From Terriglobia bacterium (GTDB lineage Bacteria; Acidobacteriota; Terriglobia; Versatilivoradales; Versatilivoraceae), in assembly GCA_041476565.1 (NCBI GenBank), contig JBGOTQ010000002.1, positions 773 to 64,772 of the forward strand: a stretch of 64,000 nt of DNA, given 5' to 3'. The notes beneath the pieces were generated by a model, which saw only the letters and a program-made list of their open reading frames with translations, was not told the origin of the DNA and searched no databases. A program made the translations under genes and the position numbers. This document shows positions 1 to 27,483 of the stretch, one piece after another; position 1 is the stretch's first letter; each line of letters opens with the position of its first letter.

Positions 1-46
1 GGAAATGCCGGCAATGCCGGCAGTAGAGCCCCAATGAGGGCTTTTG

Positions 47-314
47 TGAAAATGCAGGCTTCAAGGTGGGCGCCGCGCTCCGTCGCGGCGATCACTCTGG
101 TTTAAACTGGTCGCCGCTCGGGGGACAGCGGTCCCATGATCGGCTCCCACACTCTCCCCAAGACCGCCATTTTCATCGGCGGTGGTGAACTTGAAATAGG
201 TCATGGGGCACTCTCTTGAAAATCTCTGACTTCGTAGGGAACGGACGCCGTTCCGTTCCCTGGACCAAACAGGACCCATAATTCGGAATGGGGAACGCTA
301 CGGCGAGCGTTCCC
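47..314. repeat. Composite structured repeat, copy I. It has a B module (59-90, hairpin gccgcg/cgcggc) and a C module (162-224, core ggtcatggggcactct). Two perfect hairpins follow at 237-260 and 290-314.
   Basis: Sequence blocks are shared with 19041-19210, 22449-22805 and 27308-27483. The minus-strand ORF 61..279 lies across the element, but its reading frame is not conserved between copies, so it is non-coding. Confidence 0.7.
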
Positions 315-428
315 TACCATGTTCATCCGCGGTGGCGCGTTGAGAAATACCCTTTCGCACGATCTGGCAACTTGCTTAGTCCCATTCTCACGGATCGGAG
401 ATCTCCCCCCAAGGCCCTGAGCTTCCTG

Positions 429-2000
429 ATGACCAAGTTCCCTCTAACAGAAGCGGTTCCTCTCCTGCAGGATTACCTGATTCAGTCTGCCCTGCGCATG
501 CCAGAGAAAGTAGCGCTGGTATGCGAGGAACGCCGGGTGACCTACGCGGAGCTTGAGACCCGCTCCAACGCATTGTCACACGGATTGGTTCGCTGTGGCG
601 TCCGGCGGGGTGACCGCGTCATCATCTTTATGGACAACAGTGTGGAGGCGGCCCTTGCCTTCTGGGCAGTCCTAAAGGCTAACGCTGTGGTGTCTGTGGT
701 CAGTCCGCTCACTAAGATTGATAAACTGGCTTACCTTTTGAACGACTGCCAGGCTGTCGCCCTGGTCACCCATGCCGACTTCCTCTCCATAGCCTGCGAG
801 GCGGCTTCCAGGGCTCCGGGACTTAGAAACACAATTGTTGCCGGCAGTCCGAGTGAGGAAATGCTCAAAAATATGCCGGGAGTCTGGAGCTTTGAAGATC
901 TACTTTCCGGCCTGCCCTCTAATCAGACGCCGCCGCGATGCTGCATTGACATTGATCTGGCAGCTATTATCTACACGTCGGGGAGCACGGGCGAACCCAA
1001 GGGGGTGATGCTCTCCCACCGCAACATGCTAACGGCGGCTACTTCCATTGCGGCCTACCTGGAAATCAGCTCGGACGATGTGATTCTTTGTGTCCTGCCA
1101 CTCTCTTTTGACTACGGTCTCTATCAGATGATCATGGCATTCCGGCAGGGCGCCAGGCTGGTTCTGGAACAATCCTTCGCCTTCCCGGCAAAGGTATTGC
1201 AAACGGTTGTTGAGGAGAAGGTGACTGGCTTCCCTGGAGTTCCGACCATCTTTGCGATTTTGGCAGAAATGAAGAATTTGAACGTCTACGATTTCTGCAG
1301 CATTCGTTTTGTTAGCAACACGGCTGCGGCACTCCCACTCAGACAAATTGAGGCCTTAAAGCGGATTTTCCCCCAGGCGAAGATCTTCTCCATGTACGGA
1401 TTGACGGAATGTAAGCGCTGCAGCTACCTGCCTCCGGAAGATCTGGATTGCAAGCCCGACAGTGTCGGTATTGCCATCCCCAACACGGAGCTTTGGGTCG
1501 AAGACGAGAACGGCAATCACTTGGGACCAGGGCAAGTCGGGCAATTGGTGGTTCGCGGGGCTACTGTTATGAAAGGGTATTGGGGGAAACCAGAAGCCAC
1601 TGCCAAGAAGCTTCGCCCCGGGTTGTTCTCCGGCGAGATGGTCCTCCATACCGGAGACTACTGTAAGATGGATGAAGAAGGTTACCTCTATTTCGTTGGG
1701 CGCATGGACGACATCATTAAGTCGCGCGGCGAAAAAGTATCCCCCAGAGAGGTGGAAAACGTCTTGATGAACATTCAAGGGGTGAAAGAGGCAGCCGTCA
1801 TCGGGGTACCGGACGAGGTCCTGGGACAGTCCATCAAGGCTTTTGTAGTACTGGAATCCGGAATGGGCTTGACCGTCAAAGAACTCCAGCGGGAGTGTCT
1901 TCGCCGGCTGGAGAATTTCATGGTGCCCCACGAAATTGAACTGGTACCGGATCTGCCCAAGACCTCGTCCGGAAAGATCAAGAAGACCGGGTTGTCATAA
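429..2000 (+). CDS. AMP-dependent acyl-CoA synthetase/ligase (long-chain fatty acid--CoA ligase family)
   Basis: The AMP-binding signature YTSGSTGEPKG is present, with a C-terminal GEKV...SSGKIKK motif. The six-frame ORF starts at 288, but the first 47 codons translate the hairpin repeats. The ATG at 429 (MTKFPLTEAV...) is the more plausible start. Confidence 0.9.
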   Translation: MTKFPLTEAVPLLQDYLIQSALRMPEKVALVCEERRVTYAELETRSNALSHGLVRCGVRRGDRVIIFMDNSVEAALAFWAVLKANAVVSVVSPLTKIDKLAYLLNDCQAVALVTHADFLSIACEAASRAPGLRNTIVAGSPSEEMLKNMPGVWSFEDLLSGLPSNQTPPRCCIDIDLAAIIYTSGSTGEPKGVMLSHRNMLTAATSIAAYLEISSDDVILCVLPLSFDYGLYQMIMAFRQGARLVLEQSFAFPAKVLQTVVEEKVTGFPGVPTIFAILAEMKNLNVYDFCSIRFVSNTAAALPLRQIEALKRIFPQAKIFSMYGLTECKRCSYLPPEDLDCKPDSVGIAIPNTELWVEDENGNHLGPGQVGQLVVRGATVMKGYWGKPEATAKKLRPGLFSGEMVLHTGDYCKMDEEGYLYFVGRMDDIIKSRGEKVSPREVENVLMNIQGVKEAAVIGVPDEVLGQSIKAFVVLESGMGLTVKELQRECLRRLENFMVPHEIELVPDLPKTSSGKIKKTGLS

Positions 2001-2082
2001 GGCGGGTTAACCCTGTCTGTAAGTCCGACGCACGGGTGCAATCAAATAAACGGAACCCAATCGGTTAGAGAATAATAGGCGC

Positions 2083-3075
2083 ATGCCGAGTGACAGCCAC
2101 ACCCGAATATTGAATCTGTTGATGTCGGCAGCAGTTCCGAATGCGGAACGCGAAAGTGATCTGATCCTCCAATCTGCTCGTGACGATCTTCATGCCATGG
2201 AAATGGCAACTGACCGACTCAAGGGGATTCCGTTGGCGTATCTTCTAGAGAGGCAGAACTTCCTGGGAATTGAATTTCTGGTGGATCGTGGTGTGTTGAT
2301 CCCCCGGCCCGAGACGGAATTGCTTGCGAGGACTGCCATTCAATATCTGCAAACCCAACATAGCCTTCCCTCAGTGGAGGGAAAGAAGGAAGGAATTTCG
2401 CCGGGGCAGGGGAACCGGCCTGCAGGATTGTTTCTATCCGGATCGCCCGAGGGTCCGGCGGCTTCTCTCAGGATTTCCCGGGACAAGACAATGAAATCAA
2501 ACTCCGCCAACCCGGAGTCCAGGGGAGACGAAGCGGTTCGCTCCGACCGGCAACTGCGTCTCGTTGATATGTGCAGCGGGGCTGGCAATCTTGCTTGTGC
2601 ACTAGCCTTGAATCTGCCCGGAGCCCATGTGTGGGCAGCTGATATTGCCCAGAACTCTGTCTCATTGGCGCGCCGCAACGTGGCGCGCCTCGGCCTGGAT
2701 GGACAAGTCGAGGTTTTCCAAGGGGACTATTTCACGGCTTTTGATGGTGTTGGCCTGGAGAGCACCATCGATGCAATAGTCTGCAACCCTCCCTATATTC
2801 CGACGATCAAGTTGGACGAAGAAAGGCTTGAACTCTACCGGCACGAACCTCGCGAGGCCTTTGATGGCGGGCCTTATGGGCTTTCTGCTCATCTCCAGGT
2901 CCTGCGGCAAGCTGCAGCTTTCCTGCGGCCCGGCGGAGCTTTGTTTTGCGAGTTCGGTATAAAGCAAGGGCCCCAAATTCGGGGACTGTTCAAGCTGACC
3001 CGAAGTTATGAGCGATTTGAATTGATTAATGACGAACAGGGGGAACCCCGCGTGTTTCTCGCGGTCAACAGATGA
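2083..3075 (+). CDS. HemK-family protein-(glutamine-N5) methyltransferase (release-factor methyltransferase-like)
   Basis: The NPPY motif (VCNPPYIPT) and SAM motif I (VDMCSGAGNLA) are present. A low-complexity insertion of about 75 aa (SVEGKKEGISPGQG...SRDKTMKSNSANPESRGDE) is unusual for the family. Confidence 0.7.
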   Translation: MPSDSHTRILNLLMSAAVPNAERESDLILQSARDDLHAMEMATDRLKGIPLAYLLERQNFLGIEFLVDRGVLIPRPETELLARTAIQYLQTQHSLPSVEGKKEGISPGQGNRPAGLFLSGSPEGPAASLRISRDKTMKSNSANPESRGDEAVRSDRQLRLVDMCSGAGNLACALALNLPGAHVWAADIAQNSVSLARRNVARLGLDGQVEVFQGDYFTAFDGVGLESTIDAIVCNPPYIPTIKLDEERLELYRHEPREAFDGGPYGLSAHLQVLRQAAAFLRPGGALFCEFGIKQGPQIRGLFKLTRSYERFELINDEQGEPRVFLAVNR

Positions 3076-4064
3076 TTATGGCCAGCAAGGAATTCTTCGA
3101 AAATGCCCTCAAGATCGACGCCCCGGAAGTATGTGCGAAAATCAAGCGGGTCCTTCGCGATCAGGTAGGTCGGCAATTCAAGAAGAAGGGTATCGTGGTG
3201 GCTGTATCCGGCGGGATCGACAGCAGTGTCACGGTGGCACTCAGTGCCATGGCACTGGGGCGCGAACGGGTCCTTGCCTTGCTGATGCCGGAGCACGAGT
3301 CGTCGGACGAGAGCCTGAGTCTGGGATCGTTACTTGCCGGGCACCTAGGAATTGAGACCGTGGTGGAAGACATTGGCCCGCTGCTTGAGGCGGCTGGATG
3401 CTATCGCCGCCGCGATGCCGCCATTCGAACCCAGGTTCCGGAGTTCGGCCCCGGCTATCGATGCAAGATAGTTCTGACAAACGTTCTCGAGCGGGACGGA
3501 TTCAATTTCTTCCACCTGGTGGTGGAATCCGACAAGGGGATTCAGACCAAGATCCGGTTGAACGCTCAGACTTACCTGGAAATCGTGGCGGCCACCAACA
3601 TGAAACAGCGCAGCCGGAAATTCTTTGAATATTACCATGCCGACCGCCTGAACTACGCCGTGGCCGGCACGCCCAACCGGCTTGAATATGACCTCGGGTT
3701 CTTCGTAAAGAATGGCGATGGGGCTGCTGATCTCAAACCCATTGCCCACTTATATAAATGCCAGGTTTACCAACTGGCCGCCCATTTGAATATCCCTGCC
3801 GAAATCCAGCAGCGCCCCCCCACCACCGACACTTACTCCCTGCCCCAATCCCAGGAGGAGTTTTACTTTTCTCTCCCCTACGAGCAAATGGATATGTGCC
3901 TGTATGCTCGGGACCATGGATTGGCGCCGGCCGAAGTAGCCCCTGCCATTGGACTCACCCCCAAGCAGGTGGAACGGGTCTACCAGGACATCGATCGAAA
4001 ACGGTCTGTGGCCCATTATCTCCACGCTGCACCGCTCCTGATCGAAGAGATTTCACCCAAGTAG
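3072..4064 (+). CDS. nadE: NH3-dependent NAD+ synthetase
   Basis: The PP-loop SGGIDSS is present and the overall architecture is NadE-like. The start overlaps the upstream stop codon (ATGA). Confidence 0.85.
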   Translation: MIMASKEFFENALKIDAPEVCAKIKRVLRDQVGRQFKKKGIVVAVSGGIDSSVTVALSAMALGRERVLALLMPEHESSDESLSLGSLLAGHLGIETVVEDIGPLLEAAGCYRRRDAAIRTQVPEFGPGYRCKIVLTNVLERDGFNFFHLVVESDKGIQTKIRLNAQTYLEIVAATNMKQRSRKFFEYYHADRLNYAVAGTPNRLEYDLGFFVKNGDGAADLKPIAHLYKCQVYQLAAHLNIPAEIQQRPPTTDTYSLPQSQEEFYFSLPYEQMDMCLYARDHGLAPAEVAPAIGLTPKQVERVYQDIDRKRSVAHYLHAAPLLIEEISPK

Positions 4065-4200
4065 ACAACTCCATCCCTTCCGTTTTTCTTTCCAAGATTC
4101 ACCTGACCTGGTGACGGCACGCCAATGCAGCGTGTCAAACTCAAATCACGGCGTGGCGGACCAAGCCGGGACCCCAAAAAGGTTGGTTGTCAAACCGGGT

Positions 4201-4407
4201 TCATCGCTTCTTGTGGTTGTAGCTGGCGAGTTTCTTATTGAGGGTGTTGCGGTGAATGCCCATCACCTTGGCGGCTTTGGTTTGGTTTCCATTGCATTTT
4301 TCCAGGGCATTCAATATGAATTTCTTTTCGAATTCACTGACAGCTTCTTCAAAAAGCAAACCCTTGTCGATCATTTGGTTAATAAGTGCTTCCAGTTGGT
4401 CTTTCAC
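4201..4407 (-). CDS. Fis-family helix-turn-helix DNA-binding protein
   Basis: The 68-aa product has a C-terminal HTH_8-like sequence, QTKAAKVMGIHRNTLNKKL. Confidence 0.65.
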   Translation of the reverse strand: MKDQLEALINQMIDKGLLFEEAVSEFEKKFILNALEKCNGNQTKAAKVMGIHRNTLNKKLASYNHKKR

Positions 4408-4450
4408 GACGAGCTCCAGAGATCATGAGAACGGGAAAGTAATATTGAGC

Positions 4451-4972
4451 CTATTGTGATTGCCAGATTTTTTGGATCTGGTGATACCCATCCAGGAACT
4501 TGCTTTTCAATTCCCTGGGAACAACGAAAGAAATCACACGTGCCCCGACCAGCAGGTATGGGGCAAACCTGGATTTCTCCACACTCCCCAGTTTTACCGG
4601 GAAAGCCGTTAGCATCATAAACAGAATCGAACCGATCAGCCATCCCCTGAGGAGTCCAAAGGCAGCACCGAGGAAGCGGTCATACCACTGGAGGCTGGCC
4701 ATTTGCAGGAACTTTCCGACCGCGAAGGAAATGACTGCTCCCGCCAAAATACAGCCTACAAAAATGGTAATGAAGCCCAGCAGATTCGCGATGTCCGTAG
4801 TCTTCACGAAATCCGCATAAATGTGGGCAGCCGACGGGAAGAACCAACACGCCAGTACTAACCCGATCAGGACTGAAGCCAGGGCAATCACTTCCCGCGA
4901 AAATCCCTTGCTGATCCCGCCAGCAACAGAAACCACCAAGATTACCACAAACAGCCAGTCAAGAAGAGTCAT
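4451..4972 (-). CDS. cvpA: CvpA-family membrane protein (colicin V production protein-like)
   Basis: It has four TM helices and a CvpA-like N-terminus, MTLLDWLFVVILVVSV... Confidence 0.65.
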   Translation of the reverse strand: MTLLDWLFVVILVVSVAGGISKGFSREVIALASVLIGLVLACWFFPSAAHIYADFVKTTDIANLLGFITIFVGCILAGAVISFAVGKFLQMASLQWYDRFLGAAFGLLRGWLIGSILFMMLTAFPVKLGSVEKSRFAPYLLVGARVISFVVPRELKSKFLDGYHQIQKIWQSQ

Positions 4973-5206
4973 TGACGCAATGAGGGACTTTTTTATCTGG
5001 TCTAAACGGCCTGAACCGTAATGCTGAATTGACGGAGGAGAATGTCGTCGTCCGAATTCAACACGGGGAAACCCTCTTCCCGCCCCCGAATGAGTAAATT
5101 GTAGCGTGGACCGGAACTACAGGTCCACGGCTTCTAAAAGCCGGCCTGAGAGAGACGCTGCGACGGAGCGACAGCGGTCGCGCAGCGCGGCGCCTCCCTT
5201 TTCAGG

Positions 5207-6106
5207 TCACCTGCCACGAGAGAAAGCCTCCCGCCTGGCCAGCAGTTCGTCGAGCATTTCCCGCCCGCGATTTCTTACCGACCCAAACTGGACGCGTGGC
5301 TTCACCTTCCCATGAAAATCGGAGCCAGCCGTAACCACTAGCCGGTAACGGCCAGCCCATTCAGAGAACTTCTTTGTTTCCGCTGAGTCGTGATACGAAG
5401 AATATACTTCCAGCCCGTCCAGACCCCCTCTGACAAAGATCCCCAGCGTGACCTCATCCGCCTGAAAAGCAGGCGCTCCCGGATGGGCCAGCACAGGGAT
5501 GCCACCCGCCCTTTTAATTAATCCGAACGCCTCCAACGTGCCGATCTCTTCAGCCTCAGCGTAAGCTGGCCGGCCTTCTTCAAAGTAGTCGCGGTAAAAA
5601 CGAATGGCTCGTCCTTCGGATTTATCGCCGGTCAGGTATGGCTCGAGCCTGGGATCTTTCTGGTTCGAGGCTTTTGACAATACAGCCTCTGCGATGGACG
5701 GCCCCACAGGGACCGAGTTACCGTTCCGTTCCGCAACCTCTTCATAGCTCACATCGAAGCCCAGTTCCCTCAGTCTCTCAACCCGGCCCATGGCCTGCCT
5801 GATCCTGGCTAGCAACTGGGTCTCCAGGACCTCGTGCAGCTGCGGATTCCGCGGATCTACGAACGGCGCCAGCACGTGATAGGACCGCGACTGATACCGG
5901 GTGCTGAACTCCACCGAGGGAATCAGTTCAATCCCGAACTCACGAGACAGAGCCTCACCCTCTTCCAGGGCGCCAACTGTATCATGATCGGAGATCGAGA
6001 AAGCCGACAGTCCGGTATGCCTGGCCAGCTCAAATAACTGGCGCGGCACACAATCGGCGTCGCTCGAGTAAGAGGAATGGACATGAAGGTCGACGAAAGA
6101 CTCCAT
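5207..6106 (-). CDS. PHP-domain phosphoesterase (TrpH/YciV-like)
   Basis: The PHP motif DLHVHSSYSSDADC is N-terminal, with conserved His/Asp residues throughout. Confidence 0.8.
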   Translation of the reverse strand: MESFVDLHVHSSYSSDADCVPRQLFELARHTGLSAFSISDHDTVGALEEGEALSREFGIELIPSVEFSTRYQSRSYHVLAPFVDPRNPQLHEVLETQLLARIRQAMGRVERLRELGFDVSYEEVAERNGNSVPVGPSIAEAVLSKASNQKDPRLEPYLTGDKSEGRAIRFYRDYFEEGRPAYAEAEEIGTLEAFGLIKRAGGIPVLAHPGAPAFQADEVTLGIFVRGGLDGLEVYSSYHDSAETKKFSEWAGRYRLVVTAGSDFHGKVKPRVQFGSVRNRGREMLDELLARREAFSRGR

Positions 6107-6113
6107 CGGTGTT

Positions 6114-7028: not shown

Positions 7029-7205
7029 TTTATAACCACTGCGTGACTGGGAATTTCAAAAAAGGACCAGGCCGGTCCGGAAAGGAAAATCACACCAGCC
7101 AAACTTCACGGCTCACCCTCCACTCATGGTGAAACGCAATTGTAGTACAAAAAGCGCGAATGTCAATTCCGATTAGAAGAGACTGATATTCGCTCAATTA
7201 TTCGA

Positions 7206-7313: not shown

Positions 7314-7318
7314 CAATC

Positions 7319-13106: not shown

Positions 13107-13165
13107 TCCTTCAGGTTCTGGATTGTCTTGATCTCCCTTCCAAAGCAGGAGCCTTGACGGAGGCC

Positions 13166-13948: not shown

Positions 13949-13963
13949 TGTGGAATCCGGGAT

Positions 13964-14794: not shown

Positions 14795-14801
14795 CTGGCG
14801 G

Positions 14802-17817: not shown

Positions 17818-17894
17818 TACGGGGTTCGCCGGAACGCACTGGTAGGGGTTTATCGCTTAAGCACATTTCATTCTTAATAATCTGTAGAGGAAAC

Positions 17895-18971: not shown

Positions 18972-19040
18972 GGTTTCGGGAGACTGGTTCTCAGTGGCTG
19001 GAAGTCTGCGACTTGCTCACAATGCCTTATCTCCTGTTAT

Positions 19041-19210
19041 GAAGATGCAAGTTTTGGTAGCCACGACAAACCGCTTTTGGTTTGTCGTGGGCTTTTGACC
19101 ACGTATGAAAAGCCCACGACGAATTCAGAGTACGAATTCATCGTGGCTACCCCTGCCATGCGGGCTTGAAGGTGGGCGCTGCGCGACGGCTGTCGCTCCG
19201 TCCCGGCGCT
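19041..19210. repeat. Composite structured repeat, copy II. It consists of an A module (19049-19158, closed by ggtagccacg/cgtggctacc with two internal hairpins) and a B module (19164-19208).
   Basis: The conserved single-stranded blocks agttttggtagccacg, gaaaagcccacga and atcgtggctacccctgcca are shared with copy IV. The internal stems differ in sequence from copy IV but remain complementary. Confidence 0.7.
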
Positions 19211-19871
19211 TCTCTCGTGCCAGTTTGAGAAAGCGGCGGACGTGGGAGACAGGTCCGTGCTACCGTAGGAGCTTGGCGAAAACTCAGCGCAGAAGTTCGG
19301 GGAGGGGCCATTTTCCGGCTGAACCCCAAAAATCCAATTAGGCATATTTTCCCGTTGGTGGTCTTTACTAGATCGGCAATGTATGATCGAGACTTATAGA
19401 ATTTATGACCCAGTTGGTACTTTGGTCTAGAACACCCTAGACTAGAATAGTTTCTGACTTTCAGTTACTCCTCTAAGCAGCCTTGATTGAACGCTCTACC
19501 CTGTTCACAAACCCTTTCATCCTCTCCCTCTTCCTTAGCTTACTGGCAGGGGCCCTGGCCCTGTTCCCGATCTCATCCTACGATACTTGGTGGATCTTAG
19601 CCCCTGGCGAGAGAATGCTGGAGACCCGAGAGCTTCTAAGGTCCGGTATTGGGTCATGGACACGTGACGTGCGTCAACCCCTTATGTTTATCACGGCTGG
19701 ATGTTCGCCATTCTCACTGCCTTCAGCCACCGGCTTGCAGGAGACTGAAGCTTAATTCTCCTGAGGTCCTCGCTGGGCAGTATTTCAGCGTGAAAAAGAA
19801 CGGCCGCTATTGTCTGTTCGTGAAAGCCGGTTAGGATAAGGTCAGGGTGGTAATTTGTCGATTTTAATGAC

Positions 19872-22421
19872 ATGACCTTAGTTGTCAATAAACCCTTAGA
19901 CTACCCCATGACAGAAATCTCACACGCCGACCAACGGAGCTTCAAAGACGTCGTCCACAGGATTCTGAAAGGTAATGTCCCATGGGTGCTTCTTATAGTG
20001 TTTCTCAACCTTGTTTTCTTCGGGGATGTTCTATTCACAGACAAGACCTTTTTCTATCGGGATGTCTCTTTCTTTGCCTATCCGCTTAGGAAACTGGTTA
20101 CCGAGGCCTATTCTCGAGGCGAGTGGCCGCTTTGGAACCCTTACATTCAGTTAGGCCAGCCACTGCTAGCCAATCCTAATGCGATGGCATTTTACCCGAC
20201 TCAGGTGTTATTTCATCTGCTTCCGTTTCATCTTGCCTTTAAGCTGCACTTTGTACTTCATTCCACACTCGCAGGGATTGCGTTTTTCTACCTGAGCCGT
20301 GAACTTGGCATATCAGTTTTCTCGGCTTTCCTCGCCGCTATCCTTTACAATTTCAGTGGGGTCAACCTATCGTTTGTGAATCTATACCTTATTCTCCCTG
20401 CAGTCCTATTTCTTCCCCTGTTAAGCTTCTCACTGCTCAGGCTCTTGAAGGCTCCATCAATCCTACAGATCGCTTGGAACAGTCTTCTGGTCGGTTGTTT
20501 CTTCTTGTTGATTGAACCTCTCTGTACATTCGGGGTTGCTCTATTCGTTGTGCCCTTCTTGATATTGGGTCTCTTCTACATTCCTGGTTTGAGAGCTACA
20601 AGACGCGCTGCAATCCCCGTACTTACGGTTGTCCTCGTCATGGCCTTGCTTCTGGTTAGTGTCCAGATTCTACCCACCTATGAGATGGTGCAGAAATCCG
20701 GTCGAAAAGGAGGTATGGACTTCCAGGTCATCACTTACTGGTCCATGCATCCTATCAACCTCTTGCAGGTATTTTTCCCTAAGATATTTGGCGACTACTT
20801 CAAGCTAGTCAATCCCACATTTTGGGCTGGCCAATTCTTCGAGAATCGGGAACCTTATCTCATTTCGTCTTATATTGGGATATTTCCATTGATCATGGCA
20901 TTTGCTGGCTTGTTCTTTAGGCCTCAGCGCTGGCTGCGGATCCTCCTCGCCAGTGCGGCAGGGTTTTGTCTCTTGCTGGCTCTTGGCAAGTACACTCCTC
21001 TTTACGAATGGCTATTTCGTTATTGTCCTTTGTTCCGTTATGGTCGCTACCCTGTGAAGTACCTCCTTACCGTCAACTTTTGTATAACCTTGCTGGCTGG
21101 GTTGGGTATTGATGATGTCGTCAAGATTCGAGACTCGATTACTTTTCCCAACAAGAAGCTCTGGAAGCTATTCGCTGTTGCACTTGCAACCACTTGTCTA
21201 CTTGGGTTGCTCTTTTCAGCACTCTCGACCGAAACTCTCTGGTCAAGTTTGCATGGCGTCAGACTCAATGGAAATCAGCTGATCGCCACTCTGAACGGAC
21301 AAACGGTGATGATTGGGAGGGAGTTCATCCAAGGTGCGGTCAGGAAAGGGCAACTGCACTCGGCTTTCTTGCTCATTTTCCTGGTGATGGTCGCATCCAG
21401 AAGCGTCCGGAGTACCCTTATTCAGGCGGGAATCGCTTGCTTCTTGATTGTAGATCTCTTTGCCAGCAACTTCTGGGTCAACCCTCTAACTTTGGAGGAC
21501 TTTTATGATACCCCGCCTGTGGCCAAGTGCATTATCGACCAAATGAACCCGAATTCCCTAGGGAGGGTATATAGATTTCAGGATGTAGATTTTGAGAAAC
21601 TTCCAAATGTCCTAGGGGCCACCGATTCAGTCATGTGGGTTTCGCTTTACCGGAAACTGACCCTTTACCAGTTCCTTTCTGCCAAAGACCACATTCAGTT
21701 CGCTGTATTTGGTCCAATTGATCGAATGGAGACCTTACCTAGCCAGATCATCAGCAGTGAGCTCCGGAACATAAACACCTTGGAGGAGAAGCTGGACTTT
21801 TTGGCCGGGCTAAATGTAGGGTACATCCTCTGTATGCATTCACTAGAGACGCCGTTACTTTCATTGGACGGCCTCTTCCGGATTAACAGCGAGACTCCCC
21901 TGCGAGTTTACCGACTGAGAAACCGGTTACCGAGGGCCTTTTTGGTTCTCGATGCCAAGCCGTCCCAGGAGAAATTTCAGAGTTTTGAAAGCTTCCTGGC
22001 AGTGGATCCCAACACGACAGGACCAATACCGGCTACTTCAAGCAGCAAGCCCGCTCCACCTGCGGTTGGGCAAGTAAATGTCGTCCAGTCTCTGGTTCAA
22101 ATTCAAAGCTATGACCCAAACCGGATAGAAATGGAATCCAAGAGCGACAAAGCCGGAGTGTTAATCCTGCTGGACAGTTATTTTCCCGGATGGCATGCCC
22201 TTGTGGATGGCAAGGAGACGCCGGTAAAGAGTATCAATTTTGTTTTCCGAGGAGTGAGTTTGCCTTCTGGATCCCATCATATTACGCTCCGCTACCAACC
22301 CAACAGCTTCAAATATGGACTGTGGATCTCTTCGGTAGGTGTGTTCATTTGGATGATATTGTTCCTGACAGGGATTGTGGGCACATTTCGAAGGAGACTT
22401 AGGCAGCCGGTTCGATCGTGA
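19872..22421 (+). CDS. large polytopic membrane protein, YfhO-like (putative GT-C-type glycosyltransferase)
   Basis: The 849-aa product has about 14 N-terminal TM helices and a C-terminal extracytoplasmic domain. The W/P-rich first loop (EWPLWNPYIQLGQP) resembles the YfhO family. Confidence 0.5.
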   Translation: MTLVVNKPLDYPMTEISHADQRSFKDVVHRILKGNVPWVLLIVFLNLVFFGDVLFTDKTFFYRDVSFFAYPLRKLVTEAYSRGEWPLWNPYIQLGQPLLANPNAMAFYPTQVLFHLLPFHLAFKLHFVLHSTLAGIAFFYLSRELGISVFSAFLAAILYNFSGVNLSFVNLYLILPAVLFLPLLSFSLLRLLKAPSILQIAWNSLLVGCFFLLIEPLCTFGVALFVVPFLILGLFYIPGLRATRRAAIPVLTVVLVMALLLVSVQILPTYEMVQKSGRKGGMDFQVITYWSMHPINLLQVFFPKIFGDYFKLVNPTFWAGQFFENREPYLISSYIGIFPLIMAFAGLFFRPQRWLRILLASAAGFCLLLALGKYTPLYEWLFRYCPLFRYGRYPVKYLLTVNFCITLLAGLGIDDVVKIRDSITFPNKKLWKLFAVALATTCLLGLLFSALSTETLWSSLHGVRLNGNQLIATLNGQTVMIGREFIQGAVRKGQLHSAFLLIFLVMVASRSVRSTLIQAGIACFLIVDLFASNFWVNPLTLEDFYDTPPVAKCIIDQMNPNSLGRVYRFQDVDFEKLPNVLGATDSVMWVSLYRKLTLYQFLSAKDHIQFAVFGPIDRMETLPSQIISSELRNINTLEEKLDFLAGLNVGYILCMHSLETPLLSLDGLFRINSETPLRVYRLRNRLPRAFLVLDAKPSQEKFQSFESFLAVDPNTTGPIPATSSSKPAPPAVGQVNVVQSLVQIQSYDPNRIEMESKSDKAGVLILLDSYFPGWHALVDGKETPVKSINFVFRGVSLPSGSHHITLRYQPNSFKYGLWISSVGVFIWMILFLTGIVGTFRRRLRQPVRS

Positions 22422-22448
22422 TATAGACAGGTTTTAGGAGAATACTTG

Positions 22449-22805
22449 GTTAAAGGTGGCCGCCGCGCGGGTGACCGCCGTCACCCGTCGCGGCGGTTGC
22501 CGGGGTCAAATTGCTCGCCGCTCTCCCACCCTCCCTCCAAGACCGCCATTTCATCTGCGGGGGTGAACTTGAAAAGGTCATGGGGCACTCTCTTGCAAAT
22601 CCCCTCCCTTGGAGGGGTGGTGGACCGCAGGTCCACCGGGGTGGGTTGAAAGCTACGAACTTCGGATTCAAACCCACCCCTGGCACTAGCGCGCCTTCCC
22701 CTCCGTCGGAGGGCATTTTCATCATACGTGGCGCCCCCGAGGGGGCATGAAAGGCTCTTATGAAAATGCGGTTCTTGCTGGAGGGTCGCGCTACGTCGCG
22801 GCCCT
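22449..22805. repeat. Composite structured repeat, copy III. It runs B (22449-22495), C (22541-22601), a run of six or more tight GC hairpins (22601-22745), then a second B-like module (22760-22803).
   Basis: It contains the ggtcatggggcactctcttg core and the B hairpin gccgcgcgggtgac/gtcacccgtcgcggc. The overlapping minus-strand ORF 22450..22947 is frame-shifted relative to the copy-I ORF, so it is non-coding. Confidence 0.7.
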
Positions 22806-22938
22806 TATGGCTAATAGGGCGCATTTCTATAAGCTGTGTTGCGCCGTAACAAAGCATGAACACCATCATGAGGTTTATGATGTGTCTCGCCCCGTTGATG
22901 CATCTGACGATACCGTAAAGGAGTTTGAAGAAGGCCCG

Positions 22939-24936
22939 ATGTTGCAACGCAGATACTCTTTCCTTTTGTCACTTCTACTCTTCCTGGCAGGTTTATTTGC
23001 AGTCAGTCAGTCCGGCGGCTTTGATGTCAAAAGGTACTTCACTTTGTTGGCGGTCCTTGTGGGAGAGAGTTGGATCCCGCTATTGTGGATTCTGGGTGCT
23101 GCTGGTTGGGGATGGGTTGCTGAGTGGTTGTTTTTTGGCAAGACAGGCAGAGAGTTAAGCATTCAAATCCTTTTTGGTATTGGCCTTCAACTCCTTCTCG
23201 ATTGGGTTCTCAGTTGGACTGTGGGGTTGAACCATGGGCTTGCTTGGGGATTGAATGGTGTAGGCCTGGGGCTCCTGGCCATCCAGCTGGGTGTCGAACC
23301 ACAGCGGCTCCAAAGGAGAGAGAGACGGGGTCCCCGAAGCTGGGGATTGATGTTGTCCGCGCTTCCTACAAGCCTTTTGTTGGGTGCATGCACAATACCT
23401 CCAGGTATCCTGTGGCCGAGCGAATACGGTGGTTATGACGTATTGGAATATCACCTCCAACTCCCCCAAGAATGGATGAAGCTGGGCAGGATGGAGGGAC
23501 TTCAGCACAATGTGTTTTCATTTCTGCCTAATCTGGTAGAGTCTGGATACCTCCACTTGGCTCTCTACAAAGGTTCAGCAATCGAGGCAGGTTATGCAGC
23601 TCAGTTATTCAGTTCAGCAACGGCGGTTTTGGTGGCCTGGATCGTAGGTCAAACTGCTGTGTCGCTGGCGAGGAGAATCTCGCCGACAAGTGGAGTGGAG
23701 GACTCAAGATTGGCCTTTGCAGCAGGTTCCATTTACTTGGCGGTGCCGTGGACTCTTGTTACTGGATCCATTGCCTATAACGAGCAGACAATGATGGCCT
23801 TGGGAGCTGGCGTCTTATATCTCGCTTTCGGAAGGAAGCTTGAATACTCTTCTCCGAGAGGTGAGTTCCGCAAGGGTGCCGCAATTGGTTTTCTGTGTTC
23901 CCTTTCAATTCTGGTGAAGCCAAGCAGCGCGCTTCTGATCACAGCTCCGATATGTTTCTTATGGCTTTTCCTCGACCGGCCAAGAATAAGAACGTTTGGA
24001 GCCAGACTGGGCGGAATCATTAGCAGCCTCTTGCCGTTGATGACTTTATGGATGACACGTAATTACTCATGGACCGGCAACCCCTTTTTCCCCATGCTCA
24101 CCCAGTGGTTTGGGACAGGGCATTGGACCTCCGATCAAGCAACCCGCTGGGTGCATGCGATCTCTTCCAGCCTTTCCCTAGGAAAGCGAATACCCATGTT
24201 TTTGTCCCAGGTCCACGGCATATTCCACCCCCAGTTCGGCTGGATCCTGCTGCCAGCACTGGCCCTCTCAATCTGGTCCATAATAAAGCGTCAAATTCAT
24301 CAACAGTCACTGACTAAACTCCTTGGCATTCTCTTATTGCAGATTTTTTTTTGGCTCGGATTCACTCATCTAATGAGTCGTTTCCTCCTTCCTGTCCTGC
24401 TTCCAATGTGTGTAATAATCGGACTAGGTTTGGCCACATTGGACAGAAAGACACAGACGGTAGCCGCTTCGATCCTGGTGATTGTGTTAACCTTCCAAGG
24501 TTGTTGCCTCTTTTGGAACATCCGCGGTGGGAAGGCAGGATTGCTGATTGACGGAGTTACATTGATGGAATATGGATTCGAACCGTTTCGAACATTGAAC
24601 CAATTGCCTCAGGGCAGCAAGGTTTATGCAGAAGGGTTTGCGACCCCGTTTTATGTTAAGACGGCACTGACTTACCATACAGCTTGGGACACCAGCCTAA
24701 TGGGCGAAGCCATGGTGCAAGGGGGAGAGCGAGGTGCTCGAGCTTGGCTTCGTAATCAAGGCTACACACACCTGCTGATAGACTGGTACATGTTGGGATT
24801 ATATTACAGGCCTGGGGGATACGGGTATGATCATCGTATCACAGTGAGTAGCCTGACCAAATTGATTCAGATCGGGTTTCAGGAAGTCTATACGGATCCA
24901 AGGAAAAGTCTGGTGATCCTCAAAATCTCCGGCTGA
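22939..24936 (+). CDS. large polytopic membrane protein, possible GT-C glycosyltransferase
   Basis: I chose the ATG at 22939 with an upstream GAAGAAGG as the start. The ORF-track start at 22747 lies inside the repeat array. About 14 TM helices are predicted. A T9 homopolymer tract lies in the CDS at 24344-24352. Confidence 0.5.
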   Translation: MLQRRYSFLLSLLLFLAGLFAVSQSGGFDVKRYFTLLAVLVGESWIPLLWILGAAGWGWVAEWLFFGKTGRELSIQILFGIGLQLLLDWVLSWTVGLNHGLAWGLNGVGLGLLAIQLGVEPQRLQRRERRGPRSWGLMLSALPTSLLLGACTIPPGILWPSEYGGYDVLEYHLQLPQEWMKLGRMEGLQHNVFSFLPNLVESGYLHLALYKGSAIEAGYAAQLFSSATAVLVAWIVGQTAVSLARRISPTSGVEDSRLAFAAGSIYLAVPWTLVTGSIAYNEQTMMALGAGVLYLAFGRKLEYSSPRGEFRKGAAIGFLCSLSILVKPSSALLITAPICFLWLFLDRPRIRTFGARLGGIISSLLPLMTLWMTRNYSWTGNPFFPMLTQWFGTGHWTSDQATRWVHAISSSLSLGKRIPMFLSQVHGIFHPQFGWILLPALALSIWSIIKRQIHQQSLTKLLGILLLQIFFWLGFTHLMSRFLLPVLLPMCVIIGLGLATLDRKTQTVAASILVIVLTFQGCCLFWNIRGGKAGLLIDGVTLMEYGFEPFRTLNQLPQGSKVYAEGFATPFYVKTALTYHTAWDTSLMGEAMVQGGERGARAWLRNQGYTHLLIDWYMLGLYYRPGGYGYDHRITVSSLTKLIQIGFQEVYTDPRKSLVILKISG

Positions 24937-24951
24937 GCTTTTCTGCAAGAT

Positions 24952-26646
24952 ATGTCCCCGCAACACGTCGTCTCATTTGAATCACTGGAACTGTGTCTTC
25001 TTTGTCTCGCGATCGTGTGGGCCATTCTTCTCCCTCGGTTAGGAGCCGGGGCCTTTGCTGCCTTGGAGAAGAGGTGTCGGGTTTTAGCGAGGAATGAAAA
25101 ACAGGCGGTGTTGATGGTTGGACTATTGGCCTTTTCCACCAGTGCAGCCACGTCTCTCTTTATTCACTGGCCGCAACCGCGGGTTCCGGATGAATTTAGC
25201 TACCTTCTTGCGGCCGACACCTTCGCGCACGAACGACTGAGCAATTCTCCACACCCCATGTGGAGGCACTTTGAAAGTTTCCATATCATTCAGCAACCTA
25301 CTTATGCTTCCAAGTATCCCCCGGCTCAGGGTCTTTTCTTGGCAATTGGAAAGGTACTCAGCGGCCATCCAATTGTCGGAGTATGGATCAGCGCCGCATT
25401 GGCATGCGGGAGTATTTGTTGGATGTTGCAGGCCTGGCTTTCGCCCGGCTGGGCATTACTTGGGGGATTCTTCTCTATTCTTCGCATGTGCTTCTTGGGA
25501 TTCTCATACCCTGGCGCTCCATTTGGGTATTTCTCGCAAAGCTACTGGGGAGGAGCAGTGGCCGCCATGTCTGGAGCAGTAGCACTTGGGGCGGCTCGTC
25601 GAATGGCCAAGGAACCGAGTCTCCATCATTCCCTGATGATTGCCTGTGGTCTCGTGATTCTGGCTAACAACCGGCCCTTTGAGGGGCTGCTTTTAGCAAT
25701 TCCACTGGCCGTCTGGATTGGCCGATTGATAGCCAGACAGTGGGAGAATGGCGCGACAAGGATGGTCAGAAGGACCACTCTATCCCTTGCTTTGATACTG
25801 TCAGCTGGAGCAGGGATTACCCTGTACTACAACCTCCGAGTCACGGGACATTCACTGGTTTTCCCTTATCAACTGTACGAAAAGACCTACGCCGTCAGTC
25901 CCGCTTTCCTGTGGGCTCAGCCGAATTTAGAACCCGATTACCATCACGACGTGATGAGAGAGTGGGCACACGGCACCCTTTATCAATTCTATTTCTACCA
26001 GAAATCGGCAAAGGGAATTTTCCTTGCAACTTTGTACAAGCTGAATGTGCTGAGAAGACACTATCTGGGACTCTTACTGATGGTGCCGTTGGTGTTTCTG
26101 CCCTGGACGATGAAAAGGGGAGGGATGAGAACGCTTGCTGGATTTCTTCTGGTGATGATTGTCGGAGTCTTATCTGAAACCTGGGTCTTTCCTCACTATA
26201 TTGCTCCTGGCTACGGACTGATATTTGCCGTCGTACTGGGCTCGATGCGCAACATGAGATGCTTTTGCTACCGAGGGAAACGGATGGGGCTCGCGTTATC
26301 GCGATCGATTGTGGTTTTCTCTCTGGTTCTTGTCCTATACCCACTGGCTACTCGCATGGGTGTCAACCCCAAAAGCTGGAGTCTGTGGCGCGCCGATGCC
26401 ATTAAGGAGCTGACGCGAAGACCAGATCAACATCTCATCCTGGTTCGTTACCAGGCGGGTCACAATACGGATCTTGAATGGGTTTATAACGATGCAGATA
26501 TTGACAGCTCAAGGGTGATTTGGGCGCGGGAGATGGACCTGGGAAGCAACCTCAAGTTGTTTCAATATTTCAGGAAAAGAAGGATCTGGTTATTGGAGGC
26601 CGATAAGCTTCCACTTGTTCTGCGCCCGATCCAGGTAGAACAGTGA
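24952..26646 (+). CDS. GT-C superfamily glycosyltransferase-like membrane protein (ArnT/PMT-like)
   Basis: There are 10-12 TM helices. A DE-containing first extracytoplasmic loop (PDEFSYLLAADTFAHER) resembles the catalytic loop of polyprenol-phosphate-sugar-dependent GT-C enzymes. Confidence 0.5.
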   Translation: MSPQHVVSFESLELCLLCLAIVWAILLPRLGAGAFAALEKRCRVLARNEKQAVLMVGLLAFSTSAATSLFIHWPQPRVPDEFSYLLAADTFAHERLSNSPHPMWRHFESFHIIQQPTYASKYPPAQGLFLAIGKVLSGHPIVGVWISAALACGSICWMLQAWLSPGWALLGGFFSILRMCFLGFSYPGAPFGYFSQSYWGGAVAAMSGAVALGAARRMAKEPSLHHSLMIACGLVILANNRPFEGLLLAIPLAVWIGRLIARQWENGATRMVRRTTLSLALILSAGAGITLYYNLRVTGHSLVFPYQLYEKTYAVSPAFLWAQPNLEPDYHHDVMREWAHGTLYQFYFYQKSAKGIFLATLYKLNVLRRHYLGLLLMVPLVFLPWTMKRGGMRTLAGFLLVMIVGVLSETWVFPHYIAPGYGLIFAVVLGSMRNMRCFCYRGKRMGLALSRSIVVFSLVLVLYPLATRMGVNPKSWSLWRADAIKELTRRPDQHLILVRYQAGHNTDLEWVYNDADIDSSRVIWAREMDLGSNLKLFQYFRKRRIWLLEADKLPLVLRPIQVEQ

Positions 26647-26672
26647 GTTTCGAGCCGGAGTATGCGGTAAGA

Positions 26673-27263
26673 TCATTTTTCGGCTGTTCCCCAAAGATTA
26701 AGCAAAAACTCAAAATACCCGAATTTGACCTTGTTCATGGGAAATCCGGCTATGCCGAAGTACCAGCCTATAAGAGGAAGGGTGTAAGCATAAACGTGTT
26801 CGTCAATCTCCTCAGTGCTCACCAGCCCGAGTCGCGCCATCCGTCTTAGAATTGAATCCGACCAGGCTGCAGGTGTCGTTACGACGAGGATTCCACCCGG
26901 ATGAAGAATCCTATGTATGTCCTTCAGTAGCAGGACGAGCCTGTCTGGATCCAGATGTTCGAGCACAGCGAGCATTGTGACCACACTAAAGAACTGGTCA
27001 GCAAACGGCAGAGAGGTGTTCAGATTCAAGTCCAACGTATGCCACTTGATATCAGAGTAGTCGCTAGATGGTTCTACTTGGTCCACGGCAAACTTCTCTT
27101 TGAAATAGGTGTGGGCCAAGAAATAGGGAGATGAGCCACACCCGATATCCAAAGCCCTTCCTTTACGAAGATGCTCTGGAATAAGAAGATTTGCTCGACG
27201 CGCGCGCAACTTCGCCAAGTAAGGCTCGATAAAGCCGATTCCCCTGGTTGGACGTCTGGACAC
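26673..27263 (-). CDS. class I SAM-dependent methyltransferase
   Basis: SAM motif I is ALDIGCGSSPY, and VLEHLDPD and GGILVV motifs follow. Confidence 0.75.
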   Translation of the reverse strand: MSRRPTRGIGFIEPYLAKLRARRANLLIPEHLRKGRALDIGCGSSPYFLAHTYFKEKFAVDQVEPSSDYSDIKWHTLDLNLNTSLPFADQFFSVVTMLAVLEHLDPDRLVLLLKDIHRILHPGGILVVTTPAAWSDSILRRMARLGLVSTEEIDEHVYAYTLPLIGWYFGIAGFPMNKVKFGYFEFLLNLWGTAEK

Positions 27264-27307
27264 TGGTTCACCTTTACTATCGGTGCAGCACTAGTACCAT
27301 TCTTTCA

Positions 27308-27483
27308 TGAAAATGCGAGTTTTGGTAGCCACGGTTACGGCGCTCTTGGCAGTAACCGTGGGCATTTCTAACTTTTTGAAAAGCCCACGATTGATTCAAG
27401 AAGCGAATCAATCGTGGCTACCCCTGCCACTTTCATCGTGGTGGTGAAGTTGAAACGGTCATGGGGCACTCTTAGGAAAACCC
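27308..27483. repeat. Composite structured repeat, copy IV. It consists of an A module (27318-27429) and a C module (27430-27483).
   Basis: The framework is the same as copy II, with hairpins of different sequence that are still fully paired (cggttac/gtaaccg; cgattgattc/gaatcaatcg). The C module carries ggtcatggggcactct. Confidence 0.7.

Follow-up and report, generated by a model that had tools for sequence, protein, structure and literature searches.

The GC-rich repeats found in the window, the 64-kb stretch of DNA analysed here, are real, and the best reading of them is a new family, lineage-specific and of the REP/BIME type, in an uncultured soil acidobacterium. They are probably REP-type elements arranged in REPIN-like doublets and BIME-like mosaics in an uncultured lineage of Terriglobia (Acidobacteriota), for which we infer a mechanism involving single-stranded DNA and a transposase. 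The kind of element is already known, as GTAG-tagged REPs in BIMEs or REPINs are well described (PMC3733652, PMC2817692, PMC3116915); the phylum is new for it, and such elements had not been described there before. The sequences themselves are undescribed, as a first, sequence-only reading of this DNA had said of the family.

The elementary unit consists of a 5' head, GTAG, GTGG or a degenerate GGAG, followed by a GC-rich palindrome that often carries a C[TG][CT]CG[TC] hexaloop or, at its tip, a nested mini-hairpin, GNGAC-CGCYG-TCNC. Units occur mostly in inverted pairs with their heads outward and are framed by two kinds of arms of about 20 nt (arm-1 and arm-2), which end in ATGAAAATG / CATTTTCAT, with module C commonly coming next. 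The sequence-only reading had described four loci with different combinations of three modules, A, B and C. All four are present at the coordinates it gave and combine the modules as described, but the modules are related to one another, nearly all of them being built on this one unit plan. Its list of loci was also incomplete: it lacked the members at 5101-5200 and at 55196-55308, as well as a second doublet of GTAG units at 233-318. In total the window holds six family loci (Table 1). The GC content of the elements is 57-66%, compared with 51.5% for the window, and all copies in the window and in 12 related loci (given below by L numbers) lie between long ORFs.

As in REP palindromes, which are imperfect and form stem-loops of about 20-40 nt, the units are 20-40 nt long with stems of 6-13 bp, and they carry the unpaired 5' GTAG/GTGG/GTRG tag at the foot that is typical of REPs. 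Composites of the REPIN/BIME kind are also present, with doublets at 47-176, 233-318, 5101-5200, 19056-19151, 27324-27422, and 55196-55308, and mosaics of 3-6 units at loci 1 and 3. Module C is a GTGG-headed hairpin of 5-6 bp, TGA(A/C)C(T)..AGGTCA, with a conserved tail and a nearly invariant core of 16 nt. Conservation extends to the arms and to the module C tail, neither of which is palindromic.

Table 1. Units and modules of the repeat family in the 64-kb window, with their composition and context
Position	Strand	Feature	Composition and context
23..46	+	Possible GTAG hairpin	GTAG AGCCC caatga GGGCT, then TTTTG, by direct reading; weak, 5-bp stem; may just as well be a simple terminator of the gene that precedes the window
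47..90	+	Module B	Arm-1 (TGAAAATGCAGGCTTCAAG), GTGG head, palindrome CGCCGCG ctccgt CGCGGCG
112..176	-	B2 unit	Arm-2 (ATGAAAATGGCGGTCTTGGGGAGAGT), GTGG head, GAGCCGATC[nested hairpin GGGACCGCTGTCCC]GAGCGGC; GTGGGAGCCGATC motif at 138, minus strand; inverted, forming a heads-out doublet with 47-90
169..224	+	Module C	ATTTTCAT, 5 nt, GTGG, hairpin TGAAC..GGTCA, tail TGGGGCACTCTC, TTGAAAAT
233..318	both	Second-type GTAG doublet, heads outward	Plus-strand unit GTAG GGAACGGA cgccgt TCCGTTCC; minus-strand unit GTAG GGAACGCT cgccgt AGCGTTCC; DNA fold z = -6.0; overlaps a spurious 5' extension of the acyl-CoA synthetase ORF
5101..5130	+	GTAG unit	GTAG CGTGGACC ggaactaca GGTCCACG
5140..5200	-	B-like unit	Degenerate GGAG head, nested tip GCGACCGCTGTCGC-TCCGT; inverted relative to 5101-5130; just 3' of the PHP-domain gene stop
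19039..19158	+	Module A, subfamily A1	Arm-1, GTAG-CCACGACAAACC..GGTTTGTCGTGG, spacer, CCACGACGAATTC..GAATTCATCGTGG-CTAC, truncated arm-2; fold z = -8.3; 68 nt past the recA stop; kept at the orthologous site in L108
19158..19210	+	Module B	Nested tip GCGACGGCTGTCGC-TCCGT, fused to arm-2 of A
19236..19266	-	Weak GTAG unit	GGTAG CACGGAC ctgtctcccac GTCCG; 5-bp stem, fold z only -1.1; inverted relative to module B at 19158-19210
22440..22497	+	Module B, long form	GTGG CCGCCGCG [GGGTGACCGCCGTCACC] CGCGGCGG
22510..22554	-	Degenerate B2 unit with arm-2	By comparison with ortholog L092, where the hairpin is intact; here lost by a 10-nt deletion
22547..22601	+	Module C	
22602..22690	+	Filler, three GC-rich hairpins	CCCCTCC/GGAGGGG, GGTGGACC/GGTCCACC, GGGGTGGGTTGAA/TTCAAACCCACCCC; a different module at the orthologous position in L092
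22714..22759	+	Module F	CATTTTCAT, 5 nt, GTGG, hairpin GCCCCC ga GGGGGC, then ATGAAA; same plan as module C; recurs in L037, L039, L041, L091, L092
22760..22805	+	B-like unit	ATGAAAATGC arm, GGAG head, GGGTCGCG ctacgt CGCGGCCC
27307..27436	+	Module A, subfamily A2	Arm-1, GTAG-CCACGGTTAC..GTAACCGTGG, spacer, CCACGATTGATTC..GAATCAATCGTGG-CTAC, arm-2; fold z = -5.7
27428..27480	+	Module C	
55196..55308		Heads-out doublet of B-like units	Each unit with a GAAAATGG arm; fold z = -3.0; between divergent genes

The module C core (GGTCATGGGGCACTCT) occurs exactly three times in the window, at 199, 22576, and 27457, while 0.58 matches are expected from shuffles at up to three mismatches. CGTGGCTACCCCTGCCA is found twice against 0.10 expected, and the B head AAGGTGGGCGCCGCGC, again at up to three mismatches, has eight matches against 0.56 expected. 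Across the window and 13 related loci, GTAG is the top 4-mer directly 5' of the foot of perfect hairpins that are 7 bp or longer (20 of 917 feet, a 10-fold enrichment). GTAG heads stand on at least six distinct non-A palindromes and GTGG heads on many more, and a minority of units are headed GGAG, not GT[AG]G. The C[TG][CT]CG[TC] loop is present in 11 of the 55 distinct hairpins with loops of 6 nt and stems of 6 bp or more (110 when both strands are counted); as these 11 loops sit on about nine different stems, this is the pattern that recognition of head and loop would produce.

Module A consists of two GTAG-CCACG...CGTGG units placed tail to tail. Between its GGTAG and CTACC ends it measures 96-99 nt (19056-19151 and 27324-27422), and the ATGAAAATGC / CATTTTCAT arms bring it to about 120-130 nt. 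The hairpin pairs of module A quoted in the sequence-only reading are present as written, and its claim that they stay paired despite sequence change was borne out by 11 copies from five genomes or metagenomes. The two variable hairpins were 90.8% paired, compared with 80.3% in shuffles and only 28-43% when the partner columns were slid, and both sides had changed in 11 of 23 pairs. Selection for pairing is real, and it would look the same whether RNA or single-stranded DNA were the target. The two window copies, whose paired differences had been taken as the hallmark of such selection, come from two old subfamilies, A1 and A2, with several copies each in each genome, so that the difference reflects a few ancient events and not many independent compensations. 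Neither the outer stem of module A (ggtagccacg/cgtggctacc), which had been proposed to close it, nor the middle stem covaries across copies, and we therefore do not claim the cloverleaf, the minimum-energy fold of the module. One double change, in L039 (CCTCG/CGAGG), suits local hairpins and breaks the cloverleaf, which favours the former. A covariance model of module A found nothing in 1.04 Mb beyond the copies of its training set; it matches both strands, as expected from the near-palindromic nature of the module.

The same folds might suggest that the elements are structured non-coding RNAs, either small RNAs or cis-acting 3' or 5' UTR elements, whose modules are RNA domains and whose stems are kept by selection on RNA folding. 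Strong predicted folds (z down to -8.3) and pairing retained through sequence change would fit this explanation, as would the location of several loci just 3' of genes (recA, a YfhO-like gene, and the PHP-domain gene) and the ATTTTCAT that follows some hairpins and resembles a weak U-tract. However, both strands of the elements fold equally well, as is seen in their DNA folds (z -5.7 to -8.6). Relative to co-directional neighbours, module C is in sense orientation about seven times and in antisense about four times, and one doublet lies between divergent genes. No promoter-like sites were found at the elements, and the 17 terminator-like sites, against 10.1 +/- 3.1 expected, are not a clear enrichment. 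Comparison of orthologous sites shows modules that have been shuffled, cut short or exchanged, and an RNA model gives the GT[AG]G heads no role. The whole window had no match in Rfam at gathering thresholds, and the loci gave only chance-level matches at E<=5. With strands that fold alike, mixed orientation, no promoter-like site and no Rfam match, the multi-copy small RNA that had been put forward for these repeats is not supported, and we consider an RNA identity in the wider sense to be quite unlikely. As for the functional strand, G·T versus A·C mismatches were only three in number and pointed both ways.

ORFs run through the elements, and many modules start with ATGAAAATG, which would read Met-Lys-Met; in L022, L039, L091, and L092, an ORF of 33-38 codons follows module C with its indels in frame. 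Nevertheless, there is hardly any chance that the repeats are short protein genes or N-terminal gene extensions, and for modules A, B, and C coding is already contradicted. Indels of 1 nt distinguish copies of A, and likewise copies of C, an in-frame stop interrupts A1 at a point where A2 stays open, and the orthologous A copies of the window and L108 are two separate 1-nt deletions apart. The in-frame indels are also expected from slippage of (GTC)n/(GAC)n trinucleotides. Homology of downstream genes begins past the elements. For example, homology to the downstream gene in the orthologous contig starts only at window position 22820, and the N-terminal extension at 22747 is therefore spurious. 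The sequence-only reading, which had called both the elements and this extension non-coding, was thus correct. Module C was also considered as a ribosome-binding site with a start codon (GGGGCACTCTC-ATGAAA, resembling the start of the gene at 55189), and this was rejected because the downstream frames are not conserved.

Beyond the window, copies of the family are present in at least two MAGs of Terriglobia and at least two contigs from metagenomes; among the matches listed, it is found on at least 10 contigs of MAG SMAG_U14705 and at least two contigs of MAG OBJ_0618_7090110_347. A genome scan with the module C core brought these two MAGs to light, although most of the at least 107 loci listed are chance matches at gene starts, the 16-mer query being too short for 596 Gb. 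REPs typically have more than 100 copies per genome. A1 and A2 each occupy several non-orthologous sites in each of three genomes, and non-orthologous A copies are 95-97% identical between genomes, compared with about 77-88% for orthologous coding DNA.

Orthologous sites differ by whole modules. In L108, A1 is kept after recA and the B doublet (19158-19210, 19236-19266) is absent, while L092 keeps the whole mosaic of locus 3 with one module replaced and hairpin tips altered. L113 has an A copy where the syntenic site of the window has none, with flanks too diverged to define insertion boundaries, and no clean empty site with defined boundaries was seen among the orthologous sites compared. The persistence of whole mosaics at orthologous sites, in genomes about 80% identical in coding DNA, indicates slow turnover and, like the missing empty site, speaks against a REP identity. 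Taken with the GT[AG]G tag, the GC-rich palindromes in inverted pairs, and the extragenic, multi-copy spread, the gain and loss of whole modules supports the REP/BIME-like mosaic that the sequence-only reading had offered as one possibility. In a public MAG, the recA region of the same organism is a 3.5-kb contig.

In REPIN/REPtron systems, the cognate RAYT gene (TnpA-REP, Pfam Y1_Tnp) is flanked by the same REPs. In the present family, hairpins would form on single-stranded DNA at the replication fork, and a Y1 HUH tyrosine transposase of the RAYT, or TnpA(REP), kind would recognise them by head, foot, and loop, and copy or rearrange the hairpin units. Only pairing would matter in the rest of the stem, so that stems could be swapped wholesale yet remain complementary. 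Hairpins transcribed within 3' UTRs may secondarily stabilise or terminate mRNAs. TnpA(REP) is known to read GTAG and the loop or bulge (PMC8266576). Using E. coli RAYT and six acidobacterial tyrosine transposases (supplement of PMC3733652) as tblastn queries, we found neither a cognate RAYT gene nor that of any other Y1 transposase, be it within the window or across about 1 Mb of related loci, so that membership in the known kind of element is incomplete. The sole match of the E. coli query was on an unrelated contig, L124, whose flanks have no similarity to the family. The acidobacterial tyrosine transposases have nearly 8,000 database homologues, with lineages not separated. The flanks of two that were inspected show no similarity to the modules, and the repeats flanking the A. 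capsulatum locus, one of the TIRYT kind, are unrelated to this family.

The units are directional, in that their two arms show consistent differences from each other and module C is always placed after arm-2, and they could also be viewed as non-autonomous derivatives of IS200/IS605-type elements (palindrome-associated transposable elements), moved by a multi-copy TnpA and not by a domesticated single-copy RAYT. The left end would then be arm-1 with a hairpin, and the right end a hairpin with arm-2 and module C; TGAAAAT would be a target or cleavage-linked motif, and (A/T)TGAAAAT does recur at the unit start and right after module C. The lack of DDE-type terminal inverted repeats and of a target-site duplication would also fit. 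However, no such transposase or TnpB was seen in the window or related loci, a full-length parent element was not seen, and the GTAG head is a signature of REPs, not of IS200/IS605 ends (PMC8266576). The derivation, the assignment of the ends, and the role of TGAAAAT each appear improbable to us, and the mechanism overlaps so largely with the REP explanation that this is a variant of it and no true alternative.

It is very improbable that the repeats are classical MITEs of a DDE-transposase IS with ATGAAAATG...CATTTTCAT as terminal inverted repeats. The arms do form an imperfect inverted repeat of 9-10 bp around modules A and B, which pairs in the plus-strand centroid fold and the minus-strand MFE fold of A2. 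Yet they share only about 9 nt, past which they are dissimilar to each other, and no direct repeat flanks the complete units in the window, L039, or L050, so that terminal inverted repeats with a target-site duplication were not found. Moreover, tagged palindromes dominate the internal structure, and the mosaics do not behave like single insertions.

Another explanation, which we regard as unlikely, is a directional two-ended class of element (arm-1, paired tagged hairpins, arm-2, module C) that differs from RAYT-driven REPs. The C core and ATGAAAAT would then serve a host function, for example as a processing signal or as a binding site for a protein of the nucleoid or of replication, or they could mark the ends that an undescribed acidobacterial single-strand transposase recognises. 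New hairpins inserted into old loops would explain the nested GNGAC-CGCYG-TCNC.

The REP/BIME reading can be compared with several known systems. E. coli BIMEs combine y, z1, and z2 REPs and conserved linker motifs into mosaics, and their subclasses are defined by the binding of IHF, gyrase or Pol I. As in those BIMEs, a single mosaic here holds different REP types in alternating orientation, the linkers between them are conserved but not palindromic, and loci carry differing combinations of the same modules. The likeness is one of arrangement, as the sequences are unrelated, and the present linker (arm-2 with module C) differs in holding a small tagged hairpin and a nearly invariant core of 16 nt.

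REPs have a GTAG tag (sometimes GTGG), form inverted dimers, and lie mostly downstream of genes, and a survey of GTAG repeats found them in Proteobacteria, Cyanobacteria, Chloroflexi, and the PVC group, with Acidobacteria not reported (PMC3733652). The present family shares with GTAG-tagged REPs an unpaired GTAG/GTGG head 5' of a GC-rich palindrome of 6-13 bp, several REP types per genome, the location of most units near a partner of opposite orientation, and an extragenic position mostly downstream of genes (PMC3733652, PMC2817692). In contrast to them, it has conserved arms of about 20 nt ending in ATGAAAATG, and some of its stems keep only the foot CCACG/CGTGG, with an entirely variable upper stem. 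Nothing exactly like the arms and the module C tail is found in ordinary REP descriptions.

The REPINs of P. fluorescens likewise consist of two inverted REPs with a short spacer in a larger hairpin of about 100 nt, with distinct subfamilies coexisting in one genome, mainly vertical inheritance, and persistence at orthologous sites (PMC3116915), whereas the halves of module A share head and foot only. The upper stems of these halves are not mutually complementary, and the predicted fold is therefore a cloverleaf, not one long hairpin. In the same phylum, the TIR repeats of acidobacterial tyrosine transposases (TIRYTs; PMC3733652) and the class 3 TnpA(Y1) of Acidobacteria and Planctomycetes (PMC6006769) provide examples of repeat families of moderate abundance with a link to Y1 transposases. 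The motif GGGGWSAS, reported for some of these TIRs (PMC3733652), matches GGGGAGAG in arm-2 of locus 1, a match of 8 nt in one copy that may be chance, while the structures flanking class 3 TnpA(Y1) have a CnGA foot and not GTAG (PMC6006769).

In annotation, these repeats create spurious ORFs and N-terminal extensions, and they may help to fragment the assemblies of these genomes. To our knowledge, work on REP/REPIN systems has been confined almost entirely to Proteobacteria, and a well-defined family in Terriglobia, which are dominant in soil but poorly cultured, would add a further phylum to their range. With head, foot, and loop conserved and the rest of the stem free, the family would also represent a natural experiment on which parts of a hairpin such a transposase reads.

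The four loci of the repeat family carry the sequences that had been described from the sequence alone. In the window, the 16-nt core of module C occurs in exactly three copies, while shuffled sequences give 0.58 matches at up to three mismatches; a 17-mer at the junction between module A and its arm is present twice (0.10 expected), and the head of module B has eight matches at up to three mismatches (0.56 expected). A search with the B head, combined with a repeat scan, revealed additional members that were absent from the earlier list (see table), and all copies are sited between long ORFs. Nowhere in the window does an Rfam match reach its gathering threshold, and at E ≤ 5 the loci have matches of chance level only.

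Repeat units, subfamilies and neighboring features (window positions unless a related locus, L, is named)
Feature	Position or members	Strand	Setting or source
Locus 1	1-314
Second kind of GTAG doublet	233-318		within locus 1
Inverted pair (5.1-kb locus)	5101-5200		after PHP-domain gene; B-head search and repeat scan
Locus 2	19041-19210		after recA
Locus 3	22449-22805		between YfhO-like gene and glycosyltransferase-like gene
Locus 4	27308-27483		between two minus-strand genes
Inverted doublet (55.2 kb)	55196-55308		between divergent genes; B-head search and repeat scan
Mini-palindrome GNGAC-CGCYG-TCNC	70-90, 128-142, 5161-5174, 19183-19196, 22470-22486		also L004, L022, L091
Module A subfamily A1	locus 2, L108, L050, L010, L009
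Module A subfamily A2	locus 4, L039, L091, L037
Module A subfamily A3	L113
Module A subfamily A4	L004
33-38 codon ORF	L091:4958-5060, L039:4923-5028
33-38 codon ORF	L092:1620-1740, L022:4740-4822	minus
Paralogous genes	ORFs 30355..30873 and 30878..31492	minus

Side-by-side reading of all copies revealed that one unit type underlies modules A, B, and C. Module A consists of two tail-to-tail units, GTAG-CCACG-x-loop-x'-CGTGG, a spacer, and an inverted partner with the end CGTGG-CTAC, while module B reads GTGG-(G)-CGCCGCG-ctccgt-CGCGGCG and usually stands opposite an inverted B2 unit, GTGG-GAGCCGATC...GAGCGGC. The motif GTGG-GCGCCGCG belongs to the family alongside GTAG-CCACG and module C. The doublet that ends locus 1 places GTAG-GGAACGGA-cgccgt-TCCGTTCC opposite GTAG-GGAACGCT-cgccgt-AGCGTTCC. 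Module C is likewise a GTGG-headed hairpin, with a conserved tail added (consensus of 18 aligned copies, ATTTTCAT-N5-GTGG-TGA(A/C)C(T)-loop-AGGTCA-TGGGGCACTCTC-(A/T)TGAAAAT), and module F, present in locus 3 and five related loci, follows the same plan. Two consistent arm types frame the units, arm-1 (ATGAAAATGC(G/A)RGYTTYGG) and arm-2 (ATGAAAATGGCRG..GGG, read on the other strand), and module C always comes after arm-2.

An unbiased count over the window and 13 related loci supports the tag: at the 917 feet of perfect hairpins that pair over 7 bp or more, GTAG is the commonest preceding 4-mer (20/917, 10-fold enriched), and several of the stems with this head have no relation to module A. Loop sequence is conserved as well. 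There are 55 distinct hairpins in which a stem of 6 bp or more closes a 6-nt loop (110 over both strands), and 11 of these share the loop C[TG][CT]CG[TC], spread over about nine different stem sequences. In longer forms of B and B2, the tip holds a nested mini-palindrome, for example GTGACCGCCGTCAC, GGGACCGCTGTCCC, or GCGACGGCTGTCGC. The 14-nt form GNGAC-CGCYG-TCNC caps hairpins that otherwise differ from one another (B, B2, and one A copy); TCCGT usually comes next, and the closing pair covaries (T-A, G-C, C-G). The pattern suggests nested insertion into the loops of hairpins.

Repetitive extragenic palindromes (REPs) of the GTAG superfamily have been defined by a tagged GC-rich palindrome, several unit types per genome, inverted pairs, extragenic sites, lineage restriction, and composite mosaics with conserved linkers (PMC3733652, PMC2817692, PMC3116915, PMC3333891). 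All of these features match, and, judged by sequence, the window repeats are best read as REPs of the GTAG superfamily together with their dimers and mosaics; a REP/BIME-like mosaic element was one option that the sequence-only reading had offered. A classical MITE is disfavored, since the copies lack target-site duplications and real terminal inverted repeats. Single-nucleotide indels between copies exclude the reading of the modules as protein-coding, which the earlier reading had also rejected. Its remark that it did not recognize a described family agrees with our finding no description of these sequences in the papers searched; the kind of element is well known, and Acidobacteria do not figure in a 2013 survey of GTAG repeats (PMC3733652). 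Beyond textbook REPs, the family has a conserved foot beneath a free upper stem, directional arms with ATGAAAATG ends, and a nearly invariant module C core.

We aligned 11 copies of module A in four subfamilies, with identities of 82-97% inside a subfamily and 59-68% between A1 and A2, both of which are present in each of three closely related genomes. In the two variable hairpins, 90.8% of cells are paired across the 11 copies, as compared to 80.3% in shuffles and 28-43% with slid partners, and 11 of 23 pairs have changed on both sides. The minimum-energy fold is a cloverleaf (z = -8.3 and -5.7), whose outer and middle stems show essentially no covariation; a double change in L039 (CCACG to CCTCG, CGTGG to CGAGG) keeps the local hairpin and breaks both cloverleaf stems. 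The earlier claim of stems that stay paired despite change is thus real for individual hairpins, through a handful of old events, but does not extend to the closing stem. Fold strength is equal on both strands, and pairing therefore does not indicate which strand or nucleic acid is under selection. A dedicated RNA product, the other option raised earlier, is disfavored by this strand symmetry, mixed orientation, shuffling of modules, and absence of promoters; between co-directional neighbors, module C lies sense about seven times and antisense about four.

The REP-associated Y1 tyrosine transposase, TnpA(REP) or RAYT, acts on single-stranded DNA, where it recognizes the GTAG head together with either a bulge or particular loop bases; in one system studied, cleavage was only moderately reduced when the whole stem was swapped for its complement (PMC8266576). 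The window family shows a constant head, foot, and loop, and an upper stem that varies freely provided that pairing holds. From this agreement we infer that a RAYT-type mechanism is the most likely, in which the transposase would recognize head, foot, and loop and the upper stem would need only to pair. An IS200/IS605-derived two-ended element is a possible alternative, differing from the REP reading solely in which Y1 enzyme acts. Neither the window nor about 1 Mb of related loci yielded a Y1 transposase gene, and repeats at the inspected acidobacterial tyrosine-transposase loci are unrelated to the family. One such locus, in Acidobacterium capsulatum (L188:2230-2490), has four tandem units of ~68 nt upstream of an IS200-like tyrosine transposase gene, each with a hairpin CCCACATCTCGC(A/C)GAGATGTGGG after GGGT(G/A)CC, and forms a different repeat family; the adjacent transposase has nearly 8,000 database homologs, the best 120 being ~66-81% identical.

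A genome-wide scan with the C core, in which chance matches predominate among those listed, yielded at least 12 true family loci from two Terriglobia (Acidobacteriota) MAGs, SMAG_U14705 and OBJ_0618_7090110_347. Metagenomes queried with the YfhO-like protein, whose gene lies between loci 2 and 3, supplied two informative contigs: L108, closely related and syntenic (77% amino-acid identity), and L113, which is more distant yet has a module A copy. In 1.04 Mb of sequence, including about 80 loci of more distant relatives, a module A covariance model detected only the copies from which it had been built; the family is therefore lineage-restricted, like REP families.

Sequence comparisons at orthologous sites show slow turnover, module by module. 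L108 retains A1 after recA, 90% identical and with one hairpin showing paired changes, and is without the B doublet and about 120 more nt. The order of locus 3 (B, B2, C, filler, F, B') is fully retained in its ortholog L092, where the B tip differs by a nested hairpin, the filler is a different module, and the B2 hairpin is intact, the window copy having a 10-nt deletion. The intergenic region of L113 holds an A copy where the window has a plain hairpin only. Non-orthologous A copies reach 95-97% identity across genomes, as compared to 77-88% for orthologous coding DNA, which suggests either constraint or ongoing copying from conserved master copies.

Several neighboring sequences were also observed. 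Window 19400-19870 is a gene remnant, 78% identical to the first ~290 nt of a 496-codon ORF in L108 (7552-9042); that ORF is missing in the window, and the YfhO-like gene comes directly after. In four related loci, a 33-38 codon ORF (e.g., MKIVLVVVLVPRKEPFEYDDENEDEYNPLDLAQ) starts at the (A/T)TGAAAAT directly after module C, at the position where locus 3 holds a different filler. It has a hydrophobic N-terminus, an acidic C-terminus, and in-frame indels between copies, and is also a (CTCGTC)n/(GACGAG)n inverted repeat; instead of a gene, the stretch may form a hairpin. A 74-nt stretch is common to two neighboring paralogous genes (30713-30786 and 31233-31306, 73% identity); its minus-strand translation, ...NKGFSLIELLIVVAIILIIAAIAIP, presumably resembles the prepilin-type signal at the N-terminus of type IV pilins or pseudopilins. 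The start region (55150-55175) of minus-strand gene 53966..55189 reads GAGGCACTCT-ATGAAGAAT, a sequence similar to the 3' half of module C together with the punctuation motif (GGGGCACTCTC-ATGAAAAT). The likeness may be coincidental, or module C may imitate a region where translation starts.

Contigs that match the window along their full length, at 99.97% and 100% identity, also encode the window RecA; they come from the NCBI MAG GCA_041497875.1 and a JGI metagenome. In two assemblies of the same organism, L196 (contig JBGQHI010000398.1 of that MAG) and L197, the region is present only as 3.0-3.5 kb contigs around recA and locus 2. The repeat family may be a cause of breaks in short-read assemblies from this lineage.
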